Part shown: positions 24,837 to 35,483 of the stretch, one piece after another
Layout of the letters: every line of letters starts with the position of its first letter
How positions within the stretch are numbered: the stretch's first letter is position 1
From: a virus
Lineage: Duplodnaviria; Heunggongvirae; Uroviricota; Caudoviricetes
Virus record (IMG/VR): IMGVR_UViG_2585427736_000013
Length of the DNA stretch: 36,545 nucleotides
Strand: one strand, 5' to 3'
The notes under the pieces: generated by a model
What the model was told of the DNA's origin: nothing
Databases searched by the model: none
The model's input: the letters and a program-made list of their open reading frames with translations, nothing else
Position numbers and translations under genes: made by a program

Positions 24837-25172
24837 TCATTCATGCGTTTTTTCTTCATGGTCTGTCACTTCTCTCCTGATAAATTCATTGCACAAATCA
24901 ACGCACTCATTGCAGATGTAAACAGACGGTCCGGCAATCAGCTTTGTGACTTCGTACTGGGATTTATTGCAGAAGCTGCAATAAATCGTCTTCTCGCCTG
25001 AAGTCCATGTTTTGCTGGTTTCGCCAGACATCAGTTGTTTGATGTCTTTTTCACGACGAAGAACTATCCGGCCACATTCAGCTATTTTTTGGATGTTGAC
25101 ATTTTCTTCTTTCGCCAGCGCTTCCATTCGCTCAATCAGTCGCTGCGCTTTTTCTCTGTCAATGTGTTGCAT
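24837..25172 (-). CDS. small protein with C-terminal ClpX-type C4 zinc-binding domain
   Basis: 111 aa; residues 64-100 ([38 protein letters not shown]) closely match the N-terminal zinc-binding domain of ClpX as recalled; AAGGGG Shine-Dalgarno. Confidence 0.8.
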
Positions 25173-25551: not shown

Positions 25552-26511
25552 TTACTCCTTGTCCATTGCGTACAGCCCATTAACCAGAGCAAACTGTGGC
25601 ACCCCGTCCGCGATGAAAGTCGCATTAACTCCGCAGGCTTCGCGGATAGCGGGTGCCACAATCTCCGCCCCGCCACCGACAACCATCACCCGCCCGTAAC
25701 CCGAAAAACCCGCCAGCGCGCGGATCACGCGTTGTTTCAGTGTTTCTTCCTTTTCACGAATAACCGCCATCAGGCTGGCGTAATGCGCGTCATTGTGGAT
25801 GTGCTGGCGCAACCAGGCTTCATCATGGCGATGTTCGATAATGGTATTGGCGATGTGGTGACTGGTACGCATACCGTTAGTGGCCATCACCGACAGTACG
25901 GCATCGGCCATCAGGGAAACGCCTACGTGTGGATCGCAAAACACCTGGCTGATACCTGCCAGTTGCCCCTGAACCTTTGCCACATCCAGTGTGGTTCCGC
26001 CTAAATCCACAATCAGCAGGGATTCAAACGGACTCATGTCAGCCAGTGCCTTAAAGCCAGCCGGAATGGATTCAGGCATAACCCGTACGTTACGGATAGT
26101 GAATGCTTCGCCGTTCTGGTACTCCACCGGGCGCATGACGTTCGCTTTTTTGCGGTTGATGTTGGCCATGTCCGGCTGTGCGTTTGTGTCGAAATATTCG
26201 CTCAGTGGCAGGGTGACAACCACATCCACTTCCTGTGGTGTGATGCCTGATTTGACCAGCGCGTGGTGAATGGCGATTACATTCACATCGCTGTACTGGT
26301 ATTGCGTGTCGGTCGTCTGGACAAAGCGATCGCTGACCGGATCAAAACCATAGCGCACGCCATCAAGCATGTAGTTCGCGGGCTGCGTGCCACCGAACGG
26401 CGCAGACCATTCCGACTTGAAGCTGTTCGGGCTGATGGCGTTGCGGCGTTCGCCGTTCTCAGTCCATGCCAGCTTGATGTTGGTGGAGCCGTCGTCGATA
26501 CAAATTTTCAT
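25552..26511 (-). CDS. parM: ParM/StbA-like actin-type segregation ATPase
   Basis: 319 aa; extended similarity to plasmid R1 ParM as recalled (IDDGSTNIKL, ISPNSF, QYSDVNV, RKKANV, VMPESIPAG, LLIVDLGGTTLD, GGGAE, LVNGLY). Confidence 0.85.
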   Translation of the reverse strand: MKICIDDGSTNIKLAWTENGERRNAISPNSFKSEWSAPFGGTQPANYMLDGVRYGFDPVSDRFVQTTDTQYQYSDVNVIAIHHALVKSGITPQEVDVVVTLPLSEYFDTNAQPDMANINRKKANVMRPVEYQNGEAFTIRNVRVMPESIPAGFKALADMSPFESLLIVDLGGTTLDVAKVQGQLAGISQVFCDPHVGVSLMADAVLSVMATNGMRTSHHIANTIIEHRHDEAWLRQHIHNDAHYASLMAVIREKEETLKQRVIRALAGFSGYGRVMVVGGGAEIVAPAIREACGVNATFIADGVPQFALVNGLYAMDKE

Positions 26512-26660
26512 GTAGCTTTTCCTTATGTTGATTAATTAATCGGTTACAGGATTTTTAAATCCCGCTTTTGCCTGTTTTGTGCGCGCTTCATATATCGCGG
26601 CGCGTTTTTTGCTCATTTACGGGATTTGTGAGTCCCGTTTCTGTCTGTTTTTTGTTTCCA
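26512..26660. promoter_or_regulatory. candidate parC-like centromere/promoter region upstream of parM
   Basis: Two units of palindrome plus CTGTTTT-containing direct repeat (26547-26581 and 26620-26654) flanking a GC hairpin with T6 (26581-26610); the second unit overlaps the 3' end of gene A. Confidence 0.35.
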
Positions 26661-29410
26661 CTGGTCAGGCTACCCCGCAGCAGGTCTGCTTTGCGGTGGG
26701 CGCGTTCAGTGGTTTCACTGATTCTCTGTGCGTGCTCTGCGTCACGGATGGCGCGCAGCATGTCAGAAAGCACGGTAACGGGGGTTTTCATGGTGTTCTG
26801 GTCCTGCTGAAGTGTGGATGCCAGACGTGCGGCGGCTTCGGGGTCTGATGCCCCCAGTTGTTCCAGATAGCTGGCGACCGGGTTATGGCGGATCTCTGTG
26901 CTGCTTACGCCGTGATTACGGCTCAGGCGCTGCCAGAACTGCGTGATTCGGCTGTCCGGGCGGGTATCCGGTTTGCGTACAATTTCAAATCCCTGCGGTG
27001 CAATGATGCTACCGTCAACGTACAGGCTGCCGCCCCGTAACAGGTGCTGCATCTGCTGTTCACCGATATGCAGGCCGAGAGATTCGGCAGATTCCCGCCA
27101 TTCTTTAGCGAGTAATTCGTGGTTATCAGGCAAAGGCCGCTGCTGTTTGCGGCTCTGTGTCCAGCTCTGCATTTCATCACTGCTGTTTTTTGCCTGTTTG
27201 TCACGAAGCGAACGCATCAGCGCCCGGCGTTCGTGCCGTTTCAGTGAGCGCATCCATTCGTTCACTTCAACGCCGTCAGGGAGCTGCGGCCACGGTGCTG
27301 GTCGTTCTTCCGGCTGTTCTGTCCCGTTGTTGTCCGTTTCCTGTACACGGGGACAGTTATTGCCACGAGTCCAAGGGGCGGCAGGGCCGCCCTGAAGGTC
27401 AAAACCATTTTCGCGGGCGCTGTCTTCCGCTTCCGGTTTGCGTCTTACCAGCTTCCAGTTATCCGGATGCGTGCATACGCGGGAAGACTCCCCGATGAGT
27501 GGTGACCAGATCCCGTAAATCTGTACGCTCTGTTCGCCGTAATCGTTCAGCTCATCGGCGAGGTCGTAGGCGGTGCGAATCAGGTAGTCTTTACGTGGAA
27601 CAAGTACGCCACCCTGTTTTTCAATGTAGGAGGCAAAACACCCGGCATCGGCGGCAGCGAGTACCGCATCCATTGCGTCATTCTTCAGCCGTTGCGGGCC
27701 TTCCGGGTTGCGTGCCATCTGGCTGGCAAGGCGGCGGAGTTCACGCCACACCTGACGGGAGGGAATGCCAAAGAACTGGAACTGGCGGACCCGGTGAAGG
27801 CGCGCCCAGCCGATGGCGCGTTCCACGCTCTCGGCCATTGATTTTCCTGTTTCGTGGTCAACGCGTGGCTTGCCCGTTTTCGGGTCGATGCCATCCACGG
27901 CGCGGCTGTCCAGGTTCTTTCCGATGTAGGTGGCGATGTAGCTGGTTGGTGTGCCTTTTGAGCCGTCGACATACTCCACCTTAAAGCGTGGGGTAATATC
28001 ATCACCCAGCTCGTGGCGGTCTTCCTGAATGGCAATATCGCGGGTGATGGCCACGATGCTGTCGATTTCTTCCGGATGAGCAAAGACCATCATGTGCCAG
28101 TGCACGGTGCCGTCATGGTGAGGCTCCACCGTGCGGATGCCATACCAGCGCAGGCCGTCGCGGTTCAGTTTTTTGCGGACCGCCGCAAAAAACGTGTTAA
28201 CCAGGTAATCGCTGGAGTCGCGCATAGTGGCCCCGTTCCATTTGGGGTTCGGATGACCGTTCTCTGTTGTGGCGTGGTATTTTGACGGGCAGGTGACAGT
28301 CAGAAACACCGCTTTGTCGCCACGGGCTTCGGCCAGAAGTTCCAGCCCCTTCATGGTGGCCATCATTTCTGCCTTACGGTGAACCGGGTTACTTACTCCC
28401 GCGTAATACACTGTCTCAAGATCAATCGTGAACCCGTCTTCGTTTTCCAGCATGAAACTTTTCAGGAAATCGCGTGTTTTCTCGCGCTGTGCGCGAAACT
28501 CGCTTAACGCGTCCTGGCTCAGATAGGGTGATGTTTTTCTGGAAACCAGACAGGCGGCGCGGAGTTGTTCTTCTCTCCACTCGCAACGTAACAGCCACAG
28601 TTTGCGTTTCCACCAGTCCGCACAGGTCAGGCGAAGGATTGCGCCCGGTAACAGTTCCGTATCCGGTGCGTTCCTCCGGTCCTTGTCTGTTGTCAGTGCG
28701 TCATAATGCGGCGGCATGGTGTGCAGATGTAACGCCATGCGTGCCAGCATCTGATATGCCTTCAGCGCCACCTCCATGGTCAGTTCACCATCGGTCGCAC
28801 CAAAGTTATCGCAGAGTGTTTCGAAGGTGCTGCTGAACATCGCCGCTGTCATAGTGGCCAGCGTCTGTATCTGGTGCTTGTTGAGCTGTGGCAGGTAAAG
28901 CAAATCGTCCAGGCGTTCACGTCCGGCAAGGGAGCGATAACCCGGAGTTAGCCAGCGACGGTCGGTGCGGTCCAGACGTTCGAATATTTTGCGCAGGGTT
29001 CCGCGCGCGTAACGTTCAGCCTGCCAGTTCTTTTTTCCTTTCTGGCGATCGGCTTCCTGTTTTTTGCGCAGGAAGGAGAGGTGGCGAATAAGCGGGTCGC
29101 GCAGATAGGACGGCAGCAGGCGCAGCGAGGCCATGGCTTCATCCACCGCGCCGCGTGCCTGTCTTCTGGCGTCTCCTGCCAGCGTGATGGTTTTGTCCTG
29201 TTTTTCCTGTGCGTCCAGGCTTTTATTAATCAGGTTGCCCAGTGGCGTGGCGGAGAACGCCGCATCAGCCTTTTCCTGGCGGCGCTCGTTCTCTGCCCGG
29301 TAGGCATCCAGCCAGGAGGAAAGCGCGGATTCAGGAGCGGGGATCCCCGTTCCTTCACGCCCCACTGCGTGGCGCGGTTGTTGCCAGTCCCTGATGTACT
29401 CTGCCGTCAT
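26588..29410 (-). CDS. A: replication initiation endonuclease, gpA-like (rolling-circle HUH family)
   Basis: 940 aa with HUH-type motif (TVHWHMMVFAH); position upstream of the cos-side accessory slot. Confidence 0.88.
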   Translation of the reverse strand: MTAEYIRDWQQPRHAVGREGTGIPAPESALSSWLDAYRAENERRQEKADAAFSATPLGNLINKSLDAQEKQDKTITLAGDARRQARGAVDEAMASLRLLPSYLRDPLIRHLSFLRKKQEADRQKGKKNWQAERYARGTLRKIFERLDRTDRRWLTPGYRSLAGRERLDDLLYLPQLNKHQIQTLATMTAAMFSSTFETLCDNFGATDGELTMEVALKAYQMLARMALHLHTMPPHYDALTTDKDRRNAPDTELLPGAILRLTCADWWKRKLWLLRCEWREEQLRAACLVSRKTSPYLSQDALSEFRAQREKTRDFLKSFMLENEDGFTIDLETVYYAGVSNPVHRKAEMMATMKGLELLAEARGDKAVFLTVTCPSKYHATTENGHPNPKWNGATMRDSSDYLVNTFFAAVRKKLNRDGLRWYGIRTVEPHHDGTVHWHMMVFAHPEEIDSIVAITRDIAIQEDRHELGDDITPRFKVEYVDGSKGTPTSYIATYIGKNLDSRAVDGIDPKTGKPRVDHETGKSMAESVERAIGWARLHRVRQFQFFGIPSRQVWRELRRLASQMARNPEGPQRLKNDAMDAVLAAADAGCFASYIEKQGGVLVPRKDYLIRTAYDLADELNDYGEQSVQIYGIWSPLIGESSRVCTHPDNWKLVRRKPEAEDSARENGFDLQGGPAAPWTRGNNCPRVQETDNNGTEQPEERPAPWPQLPDGVEVNEWMRSLKRHERRALMRSLRDKQAKNSSDEMQSWTQSRKQQRPLPDNHELLAKEWRESAESLGLHIGEQQMQHLLRGGSLYVDGSIIAPQGFEIVRKPDTRPDSRITQFWQRLSRNHGVSSTEIRHNPVASYLEQLGASDPEAAARLASTLQQDQNTMKTPVTVLSDMLRAIRDAEHAQRISETTERAHRKADLLRGSLTSGNKKQTETGLTNPVNEQKTRRDI

Positions 29411-29416
29411 AGTGAT

Positions 29417-29782
29417 TTACTTCGTCATGCCATTCAGGGTGTCGCGGCAGACTGTAGCCAGCCGCTGAATTTCCAGCACGGTGTCTTCTGTGTCGGCATG
29501 GCGATGTGTGATGCGGATGCTGTCGGCAATCACATCGACGATTGCAGAGGATGGGCGCTGGTAAATGCCAATAACGTACGGGGTGCCACCTTCAATGCGG
29601 TAAAGCCTGTAATTTCCCTCGTGGCTGTCAATCATGTAGCGACCATCAATAACAATCTTTCCGTCAGCGAGCTGCGGTACAGGCAGGGATTTCAGGTACA
29701 TGTCATAACGTTCACGCACGCGAACGGCAAGATCACGCTCTGTGTTGAGCAGGTATTCAAGAAAGTCGTTGGCGAGAATCAT
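29417..29782 (-). CDS. hypothetical phage protein (121 aa) immediately upstream of A
   Basis: Compact ORF, 6 nt from A start, same strand. Confidence 0.55.
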   Translation of the reverse strand: MILANDFLEYLLNTERDLAVRVRERYDMYLKSLPVPQLADGKIVIDGRYMIDSHEGNYRLYRIEGGTPYVIGIYQRPSSAIVDVIADSIRITHRHADTEDTVLEIQRLATVCRDTLNGMTK

Positions 29783-29854
29783 TGCGGCAATCCTCTTGTT
29801 ACAGATGTGCGAAGGCCTCCCGCCGCAAGGTGCAGGAAAGGCCCGGAACAGGAA

Positions 29855-30085
29855 TTAATGGAGTTTGTTTTGCTGCTGGATGAGCTGCTGAAGCTCGCGC
29901 AGATCATCCGCCAGATAGCTGAAAACAGCGGATGAGTAGAGGTTTGAAAGTTCGCAGCTACGCTCATGCAGCATATTGATGTGCATGATTTTAGCGACGC
30001 GGAATGCGCGGGAAAGTCTGCGGTTGATTTCAGTCTGGATGTGACGACGCTCCGCGATAGCGCGGTGCTGTTTGCGGTTTGCCAT
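29855..30085 (-). CDS. hypothetical phage protein (76 aa)
   Basis: ORF with basic helical character; weak ribosome-binding site. Confidence 0.45.
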   Translation of the reverse strand: MANRKQHRAIAERRHIQTEINRRLSRAFRVAKIMHINMLHERSCELSNLYSSAVFSYLADDLRELQQLIQQQNKLH

Positions 30086-30452
30086 GGTGTGGCCTCGTAC
30101 GTAGTAAGTTTTTGAAACTCACCAACCCGAGGTTCCAAGCTCAGGGTGGCGAGACGTACAGGGTTGGAACTACCGGCTACGCACGAACCCGGCCCGACCG
30201 AAGTCGGCCCCGTACGCCCCGCCATAATTCTGACGTGAAAAAGACGTGGCGATACAGTACGCACAAAAAAACCGCTGGCGCGGTTGTGCGCGTGCATAGT
30301 CGGCGGGGTTCCAATCCCGGCACCCGCTTTATGAGGTGCAGCGGAAATGTAACCTGACTGATTGCGGCATGGCAAGCGGTTTTTTTGTGAGAACGGCATA
30401 CTAAAAAATCCTGATACTGCTCCGGCCAGCGGTTTTCACTGGCCGGGTTTAA
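30086..30452. other. GC-rich structured non-coding stretch inside the early operon (candidate ncRNA or regulatory region)
   Basis: About 370 bp with no credible ORF; hairpin 30422-30446; minus-strand terminator-like CCGC/GCGG stem plus U7 (30265-30283); plus-strand hairpin followed by T7 (30362-30386); several other inverted repeats. Confidence 0.3.
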
Positions 30453-31283
30453 TTACTTCACCGGAACAAACGGAACAGCGGTATTGCTGGTCATGTATTG
30501 CGGTAGCGTGCCGTTCCATTTGTTGATTGCTTCCAGCTCCATAACGCCGGGATTCTGGCGCAGAGCTTCACCGCGTAAACGAATGGCGTCGGCTTCAGCC
30601 TGGGCTTTTGTGCGAATGGCATCAGCCTGTCCGGCAGCTTCTGCGCGCAACATGTTGGCTTCTGCTTCGCGTTGCTTGACTTCCTGTTCGCGTTGCAGGG
30701 TTTTCTGGTTTGCCGTGACTTTGGCGTTAATGCTGTCGATAACGGTTGGCGGATATTCCGGTTTACCGACATAAGAGAGGCTCATGACCTGAATGCCGAT
30801 GGGGGTCATCTCTTCCTGAATATCTTTAAGTGCTGAATCCAGCAGTTCAGACTTGCCACCGTCGATGAATTTATCGGTGGTCATTTTGCTGGCCAGTCGG
30901 TTGAGTGCGTCGGCGATCTTCTGGCGCAGGTCAGTGTCGGTAATGTCGTCCACGCCTTTGCGGTAGGTCTGAAACACTGTGGTAACTTTGGATGGATCGA
31001 CCTTGTAGGCCACGCCGATGTGATAGCCGATGGTTGTGCCGTCACTCATCTGGAAGCTGAACGGGTCATCGTAGGTCTTCATTTGTTTGAAGGTCGGGAA
31101 GATGTAAACCTCGGTATTCCAGCCAGTCCAGTAGCGGCCAACGCCAACCACTTCGCCAACGCCTTTGTCGTCGCCCAGCTTATTGACTTTGATGCCCACA
31201 TTACCTGGCTCAACGCGATCGCAGCCAACCAGCAGGATGGCGGCAAAAAGCGGGAGAATCTGAAAGAGTTTGAATTTCTTCAT
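30453..31283 (-). CDS. SPFH/band-7 (stomatin-prohibitin-HflK/C-like) lipoprotein
   Basis: 276 aa; signal peptide with lipobox LLVGC; SPFH-like core followed by Ala/Glu/Arg-rich coiled-coil tail. Confidence 0.75.
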   Translation of the reverse strand: MKKFKLFQILPLFAAILLVGCDRVEPGNVGIKVNKLGDDKGVGEVVGVGRYWTGWNTEVYIFPTFKQMKTYDDPFSFQMSDGTTIGYHIGVAYKVDPSKVTTVFQTYRKGVDDITDTDLRQKIADALNRLASKMTTDKFIDGGKSELLDSALKDIQEEMTPIGIQVMSLSYVGKPEYPPTVIDSINAKVTANQKTLQREQEVKQREAEANMLRAEAAGQADAIRTKAQAEADAIRLRGEALRQNPGVMELEAINKWNGTLPQYMTSNTAVPFVPVK

Positions 31284-34505: not shown

Positions 34506-35027
34506 TTAGTTGCCTCTGTTGTTTCTGAGTTGGTTCAGTTTTGAGCTTCTGCCTGTATAAACTCGCTTACCGTTAATGGTCTGGCAGTCTTCTTTATTAG
34601 CTGGAGAGAACTTCCTTTTCTGGCGGTCATACGTCCAGTAACTTTTCCAGTTGTGCCATTCTGGGGGCTCGTGCTCTGGTAGCTCATCAGCCAACTTGTC
34701 CCACTCTTTGGCGTTAAACCACCATACTCCGTCTGAGTTTTCATCTTCCGGGTTTGTGCGCGTCTTGTGTCCCGGCATTTGACCGCGATGAATGGCTACG
34801 CGCAGTGCAGATTTTGTTAGCCCAATATATGCCGCGCCTTTTTCCAGAGAGCAAAGCCCGGCGATCGGACCATCCAGCCGTAAAGTCGCTCCTTTTTTGT
34901 AGGAACGCTTTTTCTTGTTTTCTTCGTGTTCGTCGTCGTTGGCAGCATCAATGGATCCGCTGAGTGCGTCACTTTCCTGAAGTGGTTGGTGGTCAGATAA
35001 CTCTTTATCGGCAATGAAGTCCCGCAT
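34506..35027 (-). CDS. cox: Cox/Apl-like excisionase-regulator with N-terminal acidic extension
   Basis: 173 aa; central region (AAYIGLTKSALRVAIHRGQMPGHK...GVWWFNAKEWDKLA) resembles P2 Cox as recalled; divergent from C. Confidence 0.65.
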   Translation of the reverse strand: MRDFIADKELSDHQPLQESDALSGSIDAANDDEHEENKKKRSYKKGATLRLDGPIAGLCSLEKGAAYIGLTKSALRVAIHRGQMPGHKTRTNPEDENSDGVWWFNAKEWDKLADELPEHEPPEWHNWKSYWTYDRQKRKFSPANKEDCQTINGKRVYTGRSSKLNQLRNNRGN

Positions 35028-35069
35028 TTGTTATCCTCTTGCGTTGGTGCGCTTATCGCGCCTTGTTAT

Positions 35070-35117
35070 GGTTTGTTTTGGTTTGTTTTGGTTTGTAAAG
35101 ATAATCGTACGGTTATC
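35070..35117. promoter_or_regulatory. operator-like repeats in the cox/C divergent promoter region
   Basis: Three tandem 10-bp repeats GGTTTGTTTT (35070-35099) followed by near-palindrome GATAATCG-ta-CGGTTATC (35100-35117). Confidence 0.5.
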
Positions 35118-35141
35118 TTTGTGCGAGAGGTTAATACTCAA

Positions 35142-35483
35142 ATGGTTATCTTGTCAATAGACTATGCGGAAAAGTTGCGTCAAATACGTAAGGCAGAGGG
35201 GCTAACACAAAAGCAGTTTGCTGATATCACAGGACTATCTTTAGCAGCCATAAGGAACTATGAATCAGGGCAAAAAAGCGCCAGAGCAAAAATCGTTGAG
35301 ACTGTTTTGCAGGTAGATCGATTCGAAAAGTATATGTTGTGGTTATTAAAGGATAAAACGCTACCTGCCGCCGGGCAAATAGCCCCGGCTCTCTCTCTTG
35401 ATGGCTCTTCTCAGTCGGAGGGCGATCAGGCTTCAACCGACGCTATCCAAAAATCACCCCGATCAGGCCGCAATGCTGGCTGA
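35142..35483 (+). CDS. C: immunity repressor C (P2 C-like, HTH)
   Basis: Track frame 35028..35483; start placed at ATG 35142 with GAGAGG Shine-Dalgarno; HTH (LTQKQFADITGLSLAAIRNYESGQ) and C-terminal KYMLWLL...GQIAPAL match P2 C as recalled. Confidence 0.85.
   Translation: MVILSIDYAEKLRQIRKAEGLTQKQFADITGLSLAAIRNYESGQKSARAKIVETVLQVDRFEKYMLWLLKDKTLPAAGQIAPALSLDGSSQSEGDQASTDAIQKSPRSGRNAG

Follow-up and report, generated by a model that had tools for sequence, protein, structure and literature searches.

IsrK- and C4-type RNAs ahead of an epsilon-like gene in a P88-like prophage: a probable RNA immunity module

What fills the 367-bp gap at positions 30086–30452 in the minus-strand early operon of the prophage in IMG/VR virus record IMGVR_UViG_2585427736_000013? 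The window, by which the whole 36,545-nt stretch of DNA analysed is meant, is to judge from its sequence a P88-like prophage (Xuanwuvirus, P2-like). The gap is bounded on one side by the stop codon of a gene for an SPFH/Band_7 lipoprotein and on the other by the start codon of a gene for a 76-amino-acid (76-aa) protein; the latter is followed by a 121-aa open reading frame (ORF), orf121, and then by gene A, which encodes a 940-aa replication protein (Phage_GPA, E = 1.3e-129). A sequence-only reading had previously described the gap as a GC-rich, structured stretch with no credible coding frame, possibly the source of an antisense small RNA. The present analysis indicates that the gap is very probably an RNA immunity module of the P88-like prophage, of the kind represented by seqA-CI-seqC in P4, c4 in P1/P7 and isrK in Gifsy-1, and that it most likely keeps a small anti-repressor gene off in the prophage. 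The coordinates of the features are collected in Table 1.

Two known RNA families in the gap

When the whole window was searched with the Rfam models, as the sequence-only reading had proposed, two matches and no more exceeded the curated thresholds. Both lie in the gap, on the minus strand: an IsrK-like RNA (65.5 bits, threshold 50) and a C4 antisense RNA (82.6 bits, threshold 45; E = 5.9e-15). The small RNA suspected earlier was thereby confirmed in so far as the gap encodes small RNAs, but these belong to two already-described families, isrK and C4, and not to a new one. Members of the isrK family are Hfq-binding RNAs. RNAs of the C4 class are released from a longer transcript, with 5' processing by RNase P, as a stable RNA of ~77–90 nt that represses in trans. 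The IsrK-like RNA of the window is the equivalent of P4 seqA and its C4 RNA that of the P4 CI RNA, and both of these correspondences had already been stated for the families (PMC3632133; PMC4825925).

The gap has a GC content of 0.57–0.58, compared with 0.52–0.53 in its flanks, and when fold energies were compared with those of shuffled sequences, z-scores of -4.05 for the minus-strand leader (30339–30060) and -3.95 for C4 (-48.5 kcal/mol) were obtained, in agreement with the earlier description of a GC-rich structured stretch. The ORFs that cross the gap (92 aa on the plus strand, 48 aa on the minus strand and part of a 206-aa minus-strand ORF) had no match in Pfam or NCBIfam, which likewise accords with the absence of a credible coding frame. 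From its 5' end the IsrK-like RNA consists of two hairpins, then a linker and finally an intrinsic terminator, which lies exactly where the sequence-only reading had placed a minus-strand terminator, with its CCGC/GCGG core at 30272–30283 and the U7 run. No other strong intrinsic terminator-like site lies on the minus strand from the Cox/C switch to gene A. The C4 RNA folds into a 17-bp basal stem around two hairpins, and the basal stem is followed by the 3' tail ...GCCA-CCC.

Relatives of the leader were collected through the family of the 76-aa protein, which gave 80 viral contigs (IMG/VR) and three genome loci representing 43 distinct leaders; a scan of genome contigs with the derepression-protein alignment, in a collection holding one genome per species, found four loci only. 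Five lambdoid phages (Stx2a_1447, 1720a-02, PhiR49_2, cdtI and phiP27) were added by DNA similarity, and covariation was assessed in an alignment of 23 leader haplotypes from P88-like prophages and these lambdoid phages. The IsrK terminator was 100% conserved among the relatives.

The predicted sigma-70 promoter in front of the IsrK-like RNA matches the consensus at nine of 12 positions, and its predicted +1, at about G30339, coincides with position 1 of the isrK model; no other promoter-like site was seen on either strand within 29700–30800. The lambdoid homologues have the same geometry (TTGATT, a spacer of 17 nt, and TACACT, which lies 6 nt from the 5' end of isrK), and the predicted promoter block was 97–100% conserved in the 43 related leaders. 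An A7 tract appears, from its position, to sit where an UP element would, and within the block 30389–30340, which contains both the tract and the promoter, 99% share the window's base. Homology among the relatives breaks off at about 30390, just upstream of this conserved promoter, because different cargo genes lie there, and the module boundary that had been suspected in the gap was thus located. The further suggestion of an internal promoter for the gene A operon was correct as to the presence of a promoter-like site, but that site starts the IsrK-like RNA and would reach gene A only through read-through of the IsrK terminator.

Complementarity and covariation of the C4 specificity segments

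Two segments of the C4 RNA, a' and b', are each complementary to one site on either side of it: a1 and b1 within the IsrK-like RNA, and a2 and b2 downstream of C4. The a2 segment lies on the ribosome-binding site of the 76-aa gene, taking in GAG, the first three bases of the Shine–Dalgarno sequence GAGG (30096–30093), 7 nt before the AUG at 30085. The a':a2 duplex consists of 11 contiguous pairs, two of them G-U, with an energy of -22.3 kcal/mol compared with a shuffle mean of -14.5 (p ~0.006).

The covariation analysis, another check proposed in the sequence-only reading, bore out the structures of both RNAs. Taken together, their stems were paired in 95.6% of the alignment cells, with 12 pairs changed on both sides, whereas slid controls gave 37–49%. 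The C4 basal stem was paired in 99.7% of cells and had six compensatory pairs; hairpin 1 was 100% paired, four of its five pairs being compensatory, and the stem of hairpin 2 was invariant. The G-U pairs that are conserved in the stems of C4 (alignment columns 125:194, 127:192 and 151:174, among others) would become A-C mismatches in an RNA of the plus strand, which identifies the minus strand as the one that is structured.

Compensatory change was also found between the RNAs. The nine a1:a' pairs were formed in 98.6% of cells, with eight of them changed on both sides, and the seven b1:b' pairs in 100%, with six changed on both sides; jointly, 99.2% of cells were paired and 14 of the 16 pairs were compensatory (111 cells), compared with 28–48% in slid controls. 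For a':a2 and b':b2 the figure was 85.7% of cells, with 12 of the 18 pairs compensatory, the shortfall arising because MAFFT misaligns the lambdoid rows at a2. Mean contiguous pairing was 10.4 nt for cognate and 5.6 nt for non-cognate a':a2 combinations, and 6.8 and 4.2 nt, respectively, for b':b2. A permissive scan of the whole window for complements of a' and b' with G-U pairs allowed was uninformative, and a composite motif was used instead, alongside covariation. This motif, b-N(5-35)-a, had just two occurrences on the minus strand of the window, namely the predicted target sites (0 expected, 100 shuffles); the search also returned the complement of C4 itself.

Variation is unevenly spread over the leader. 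In the a' loop 61% share the window's base, inside a scaffold conserved at 88–100% (97% for the C4 5' stem with hairpin 1, 88% for the C4 3' stem), and the six patches b1, a1, a', b', b2 and a2 range over 57–77%. Thirteen a' alleles and five b' alleles were distinguished among 44 P88-like leaders, a' and b' re-assort, and the b' allele of the window, GUUCCAA, also occurs in the lambdoid phage phiP27. We propose that the hypervariable a' and b' segments and their targets set the specificity of immunity. At the Escherichia albertii NBRC 107761 locus (L002), the 76-aa protein is 100% identical to that of the window while the leader is only 75% identical, its a' and b' alleles differ and another gene lies upstream. 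This contrast indicates that the RNA specificity segments, like the upstream cargo, are exchanged by recombination independently of the gene that follows them.

The dedicated Rfam model for the upstream target, c4-a1b1 (RF03163), scored 18.3 bits at 30352–30300 against a threshold of 46.7, and the element is filed under isrK instead as a result of this score below threshold; P4 reaches 44.1 bits on the same model, also just under the threshold. Despite the low score, the putative a1/b1 function is supported by the covariation.

A conserved small hairpin, GGUGAGUUU...AAACUUAC, was observed between b2 and a2 (30086–30131). In the local fold, CCUC just 3' of b2 pairs with the Shine–Dalgarno GAGG (-18.4 kcal/mol, z = -2.86), and on this modelled fold the leader may sequester its own ribosome-binding site even without C4.

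Table 1. Coordinates of the RNA module, its putative pairing segments and the surrounding features in the window
Feature	Position	Strand	Details
IsrK-like RNA	30265-30339	minus	Rfam RF01394; model 1-77 of 77
IsrK intrinsic terminator	30265-30285	minus	6-bp stem 30285-30270, 4-nt loop, U7 30271-30265; terminator scan
C4 antisense RNA	30142-30229	minus	Rfam RF01695; model 1-87 of 87
b1	30308-30314	minus	UUGGAAC, in IsrK hairpin 2 loop; complementary to C4 b'
a1	30291-30299	minus	CUAUGCACG, in IsrK linker; complementary to C4 a' loop
a'	30177-30188	minus	GUUCGUGCGUAG, C4 hairpin 2 loop, 12 nt; hypervariable; proposed specificity determinant
b'	30164-30170	minus	GUUCCAA, single-stranded C4 junction; hypervariable
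b2	30132-30138	minus	UUGGAAC; begins 4 nt past C4 3' end (3 nt between); co-varies with b'
a2	30094-30104	minus	CUACGUACGAG; over Shine–Dalgarno of 76-aa gene; co-varies with a'
Predicted sigma-70 promoter	30346-30375	minus	-35 TTGCCA 30375-30370, 18-nt spacer, -10 TACATT 30351-30346
A7 tract	30380-30386	minus	~-47 to -41 of predicted isrK promoter; sequence reading
76-aa gene	29855-30085	minus	ATG at 30085 bounds gap
SPFH/Band_7 lipoprotein gene	30453-31283	minus	Pfam Band_7, E 7.5e-31; stop codon bounds gap
Hairpin just 3' of SPFH stop codon	30422-30446	minus	-21.1 kcal/mol, z = -5.68
Cox	34506-35027	minus	prophage gene
HTH_3 repressor candidate	35028-35483	plus	prophage gene

Proposed mechanism and alternative explanations

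The protein encoded directly downstream of the targets is a homologue of P4 epsilon. It matched the Pfam family PF25738 'Derepression' with 29.5 bits (threshold 27), on which P4 epsilon itself scores 170 bits, and was 29% identical to P4 epsilon over 66 aa in BLASTP (E = 1e-8). Its gene, with its own Shine–Dalgarno sequence and ATG, is closely spaced with orf121 and gene A, and no terminator lies between them. By analogy with P4, the 76-aa protein would be an epsilon-like anti-repressor acting on the P2-type C repressor. No LexA box was found near the module, the sole CTGT-N8-ACAG match lying inside gene A. Phage P88 is inducible by mitomycin C (PMC5285337).

Minus-strand transcription would begin at the conserved promoter, and most transcripts would end at the IsrK terminator as an RNA of ~75 nt. 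The read-through RNA would contain C4 which, by analogy with P1 and P4, would be cut out as a stable RNA of ~80–90 nt, and whose a' and b' segments would pair with a2 and b2 just downstream. Since a2 covers the ribosome-binding site of the 76-aa gene, translation of the epsilon-like gene would be blocked, and the untranslated leader would probably be terminated before orf121 and the replication gene A. The decoy copies a1 and b1 in IsrK would pair with a' and b' of C4, whereby IsrK would titrate C4 and relieve the block, and the epsilon-like protein would then inactivate the P2-type repressor. What the sequences themselves show are the two RNA families, their structures, the co-varying three-way complementarity, the place of a2 on the ribosome-binding site and the homology to epsilon; that C4 is processed and represses, that gene A is subject to polarity and that the 76-aa protein acts as an anti-repressor is what we infer from the related systems.

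Gifsy-1 is the only setting in which IsrK pairing and its effect on anti-repressor translation have an experimental test. In that prophage the compensatory mutations G28A/C162U and G31A/C159U prove that the central part of IsrK pairs with sequence further downstream. When provided in trans, IsrK lifts translation of the anti-repressor >100-fold and induces the prophage, and the isrK promoter is needed for a processed RNA, STnc1160 (PMC4825925). Transcription of both IsrK and STnc1160 is high in lysogens of Gifsy-1 (10.1101/787010).

Several points weigh against the proposed mechanism. The PF25738 match of the 76-aa protein is marginal. The energy of the duplex between a' and IsrK was no better than that of shuffles (p = 0.33), and in the window alone runs of such length, with G-U allowed, are common by chance (hundreds of hits); it is therefore covariation, and not the single sequence, that carries the case. 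There, the structure was taken from the window and the haplotypes are related, both of which inflate the control statistics somewhat, and the misalignment of the lambdoid rows at a2 is a further caveat. Moreover, the Gifsy-1 authors credit activation to translation of orf45, which overlaps the C4 region (PMC4825925), and given that account the exact logic may differ from a classical C4 block.

The form in which the sequence-only reading had cast its small RNA, a plus-strand antisense RNA of 100–250 nt ending at a T7 hairpin (30362–30386), now has hardly any probability. A T7 run is indeed present on the plus strand at 30380–30386, but it is the complement of the A tract directly upstream of the minus-strand -35 box, and the stem before it comprises 4 bp (TTGC/GCAA, two G-C pairs), stops 4 nt short of the run and was not called by the terminator scan. 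Although the plus strand of the gap folded better than its shuffles (z = -2.73), as the mirror of any structured RNA would, the 34-nt segment concerned did not stand out (-6.9 kcal/mol, z = -0.36), 64 of 200 shuffles being as good. Nor was a plus-strand promoter-like site present in 29700–30800; all the Rfam matches and the retained G-U pairs of C4 point to the minus strand, and the RNAs are co-oriented with the operon. That the gap is protein-coding, either for the annotated 'ash family protein' or hypothetical proteins or for an orf45-like upstream ORF translated from the AUG at 30225, is also quite improbable. RefSeq places an 'ash family protein' pseudo-coding sequence (pseudo-CDS) on the region and the GenBank entry of P88 a hypothetical CDS, the frame opened by the conserved AUUAUGG is open in most homologues, and in Gifsy-1 mutations of the orf45 start and stop reduce activation (PMC4825925). 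Against this stand the lack of any Pfam or NCBIfam match for the gap ORFs and the behaviour of the frame from AUG 30225, which is shifted in L002, interrupted by a stop in another relative (L051) and out of frame with the derepression gene in P88-like phages; the 76-aa gene, besides, has its own Shine–Dalgarno sequence and AUG. Sequence changes are located in loops of the RNAs and are matched by compensating changes in the RNA partners, with no codon pattern, and for orf45 the Gifsy-1 authors, in the words of theirs that PMC12197685 quotes, find the nucleotide sequence conserved and the amino-acid sequence not.

Other explanations keep the same RNAs and shift their output. It is possible, although not the emphasis favoured here, that the main effect is a P4-like termination which silences gene A and orf121, with control of epsilon secondary, an explanation compatible with the mechanism set out above. 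The gene order is that of P4, where the CI RNA controls the epsilon-alpha replication operon (PMC4825925), the IsrK terminator is the sole strong minus-strand site before gene A, and the 76-aa gene, orf121 and gene A follow one another closely; a2, however, lies squarely on the Shine–Dalgarno sequence of the 76-aa gene and points first to translational control. A module that works mainly between elements, in defence against or cross-talk with P4-like satellites or prophages with matching a'/b' alleles, is unlikely. Such a role has been raised for lambdoid prophages (Barquist et al., 2013; PMC3632133), and it would suit the hypervariable, re-assorting a' and b' alleles (13 x 5), the allele common to the window and phiP27, and the use that P4 makes of epsilon against P2-type repressors. 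Each module nevertheless has perfectly matched targets in cis, which are needed for self-immunity and are enough to explain the covariation.

Related systems and prophage context

Read as an RNA immunity module that controls the 76-aa gene, the gap can be set beside the P4 immunity region, in which the P_LE leader with seqA, the CI RNA with seqB, and seqC precede epsilon. In P4, as in the window, isrK (8692–8615) is followed on the same strand by C4 (8507–8420); b2 comes a few nt after C4, then a short hairpin and a2 over the Shine–Dalgarno sequence (AGGAGG in P4), ~55–60 nt in all, and downstream lie a PF25738 epsilon-family gene, small ORFs and a replication gene. The full order in P4 is isrK, C4, b2, a2 with the Shine–Dalgarno sequence, an ORF, epsilon, two ORFs (orf151 and orf106) and alpha. 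The window differs in being a complete P2-like, helper-type myovirus with a C/Cox switch, an integrase and head and tail genes, whereas P4 is a satellite. The epsilon homologue of the window stands first after the targets and has its own ATG, whereas in P4 a small ORF of ~65 codons comes between, and the GTG start codon of epsilon lies immediately ahead of the stop codon of that ORF; the replication gene encodes the gpA nickase in the window and the alpha primase in P4.

The immI operon of P1/P7 (c4, icd, ant1/2) employs the same RNA family as the window, RF01695, which was defined from c4. As Citron and Schuster reportedly described in 1990, a' and b' of c4 are directed against a1 and b1 upstream and a2 and b2 downstream, a target covers the ribosome-binding site of the first ORF, which precedes the anti-repressor, and the a'/b' sequences set the specificity of P1 versus P7. 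In the window the putative effector is a 76-aa epsilon-like protein instead of Icd and Ant, and the upstream targets lie in an IsrK-type RNA with a terminator of its own.

The five lambdoid phages, whose modules are equivalent to the isrK, orf45/STnc1160, anrP locus of Salmonella Gifsy-1, share with the window the spacing of isrK and C4, the promoter geometry and the layout of the targets. The lambdoid module precedes an anti-repressor of ~290 aa of the Rha/Ant type, between cII and the replication genes O/P, whereas the window has an epsilon-type protein and gpA; the paper on Gifsy-1 does not call the downstream RNA C4. Coliphage 186 is likewise P2-like and encodes a small anti-repressor of its own, Tum, which makes its prophage inducible; Tum, however, is under LexA control at p95, its gene maps to the opposite end of the genome, and it shows no sequence relationship.

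The pair of isrK and C4 recurs in phage P88, in the three genome loci, in the five lambdoid phages and in P4, whereas neither of the classical P2-like phages, P2 and 186, matched the isrK or the C4 model, even at an E-value of 0.1. The leader shares 91% identity with Escherichia phage P88 (Peduoviridae, Xuanwuvirus), the window has the corresponding P88-type integrase, HTH repressor candidate and Cox as well as head and tail genes, and the leader was matched, at least in part, in 1329 of 5426 complete E. coli genomes. The RNA families are known, and so, in kind, is the mechanism. In the papers on P2-like phages, the P88 paper and papers on isrK and P2-like phages, no description was found of such a module preceding gene A of a complete P2-like phage and placing an epsilon homologue under putative direct control of C4; the papers on P2-like regulation and diversity and the P88 paper do not mention epsilon, antisense RNA or isrK in P2-like phages.

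A very common family of P2-like prophages would appear to have, as an integral part, the RNA-based secondary immunity of P1, P4 and Gifsy-1. The region becomes annotatable with confidence, and it offers a testable candidate for control of an epsilon-type anti-repressor and possibly of a replication gene; the co-varying three-site RNA code may also be a convenient natural system for the evolution of RNA–RNA specificity. A bolder idea, advanced only tentatively, is that P88-like helpers and P4-like satellites share an exchangeable cassette (IsrK decoy, C4/CI antisense RNA and epsilon anti-repressor, ahead of a replication gene) that forms a combinatorial RNA immunity code, and that RNA-controlled epsilon, not SOS/LexA, makes this lineage inducible. 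If this were true, the code, of at least 13 a alleles by 5 b alleles, would determine which of the prophages, satellites and lambdoid phages that reside together silence one another and which awaken one another.

Public annotations place protein genes on these RNAs, at 30142–30339 in the window and at three related loci (L093, 3602–3868; L001, 5033–5221; L086, 1146–2297), and these mis-annotations can now be corrected. They comprise the RefSeq pseudo-CDS, the GenBank CDS in P88, which lies on the opposite strand, and CDSs of lambdoid anti-repressors that are extended 5' over isrK and C4. In the window the frame from AUG 30225, inside the 5' end of C4, is open for 148 codons, which probably invites such annotations. 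A tRNA, an idea raised by the T-arm-like GGTTCCAATCC, was tried and rejected: an ARAGORN scan of the window for tRNA and tmRNA returned 0 genes, and GGTTCCAATCC is the complement of the b1 hairpin.

The strong hairpin just 3' of the SPFH stop codon has a T-run 13 nt downstream, so it is not a canonical terminator, and was seen only in relatives with the SPFH gene; it is part of the upstream cargo cassette and lies outside the RNA module. The SPFH gene together with this hairpin (30390–31283) behaves as an exchangeable cargo cassette, carried by ~19 of the 43 distinct related leaders. One of the related loci (L004; NZ_JBQPOM010000071.1, 'Vagococcus sp. WN89Y', 226 kb) has a P88-like enterobacterial leader and an 84%-identical derepression gene, and its label, that of a Firmicute, probably reflects contamination or a mislabelled assembly.

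The gene A protein (26588–29410) is longer than that of P2 (940 vs 761 aa), and its Phage_GPA domain covers residues 179–503 only, leaving long N- and C-terminal extensions. Downstream of gene A, on the minus strand, lie a gene for a ClpX-type zinc-finger protein (24837–25172) and one for a ParM/StbA-type actin-like segregation protein (25552–26511), a partition-like gene that is unexpected for an integrating P2-like prophage.

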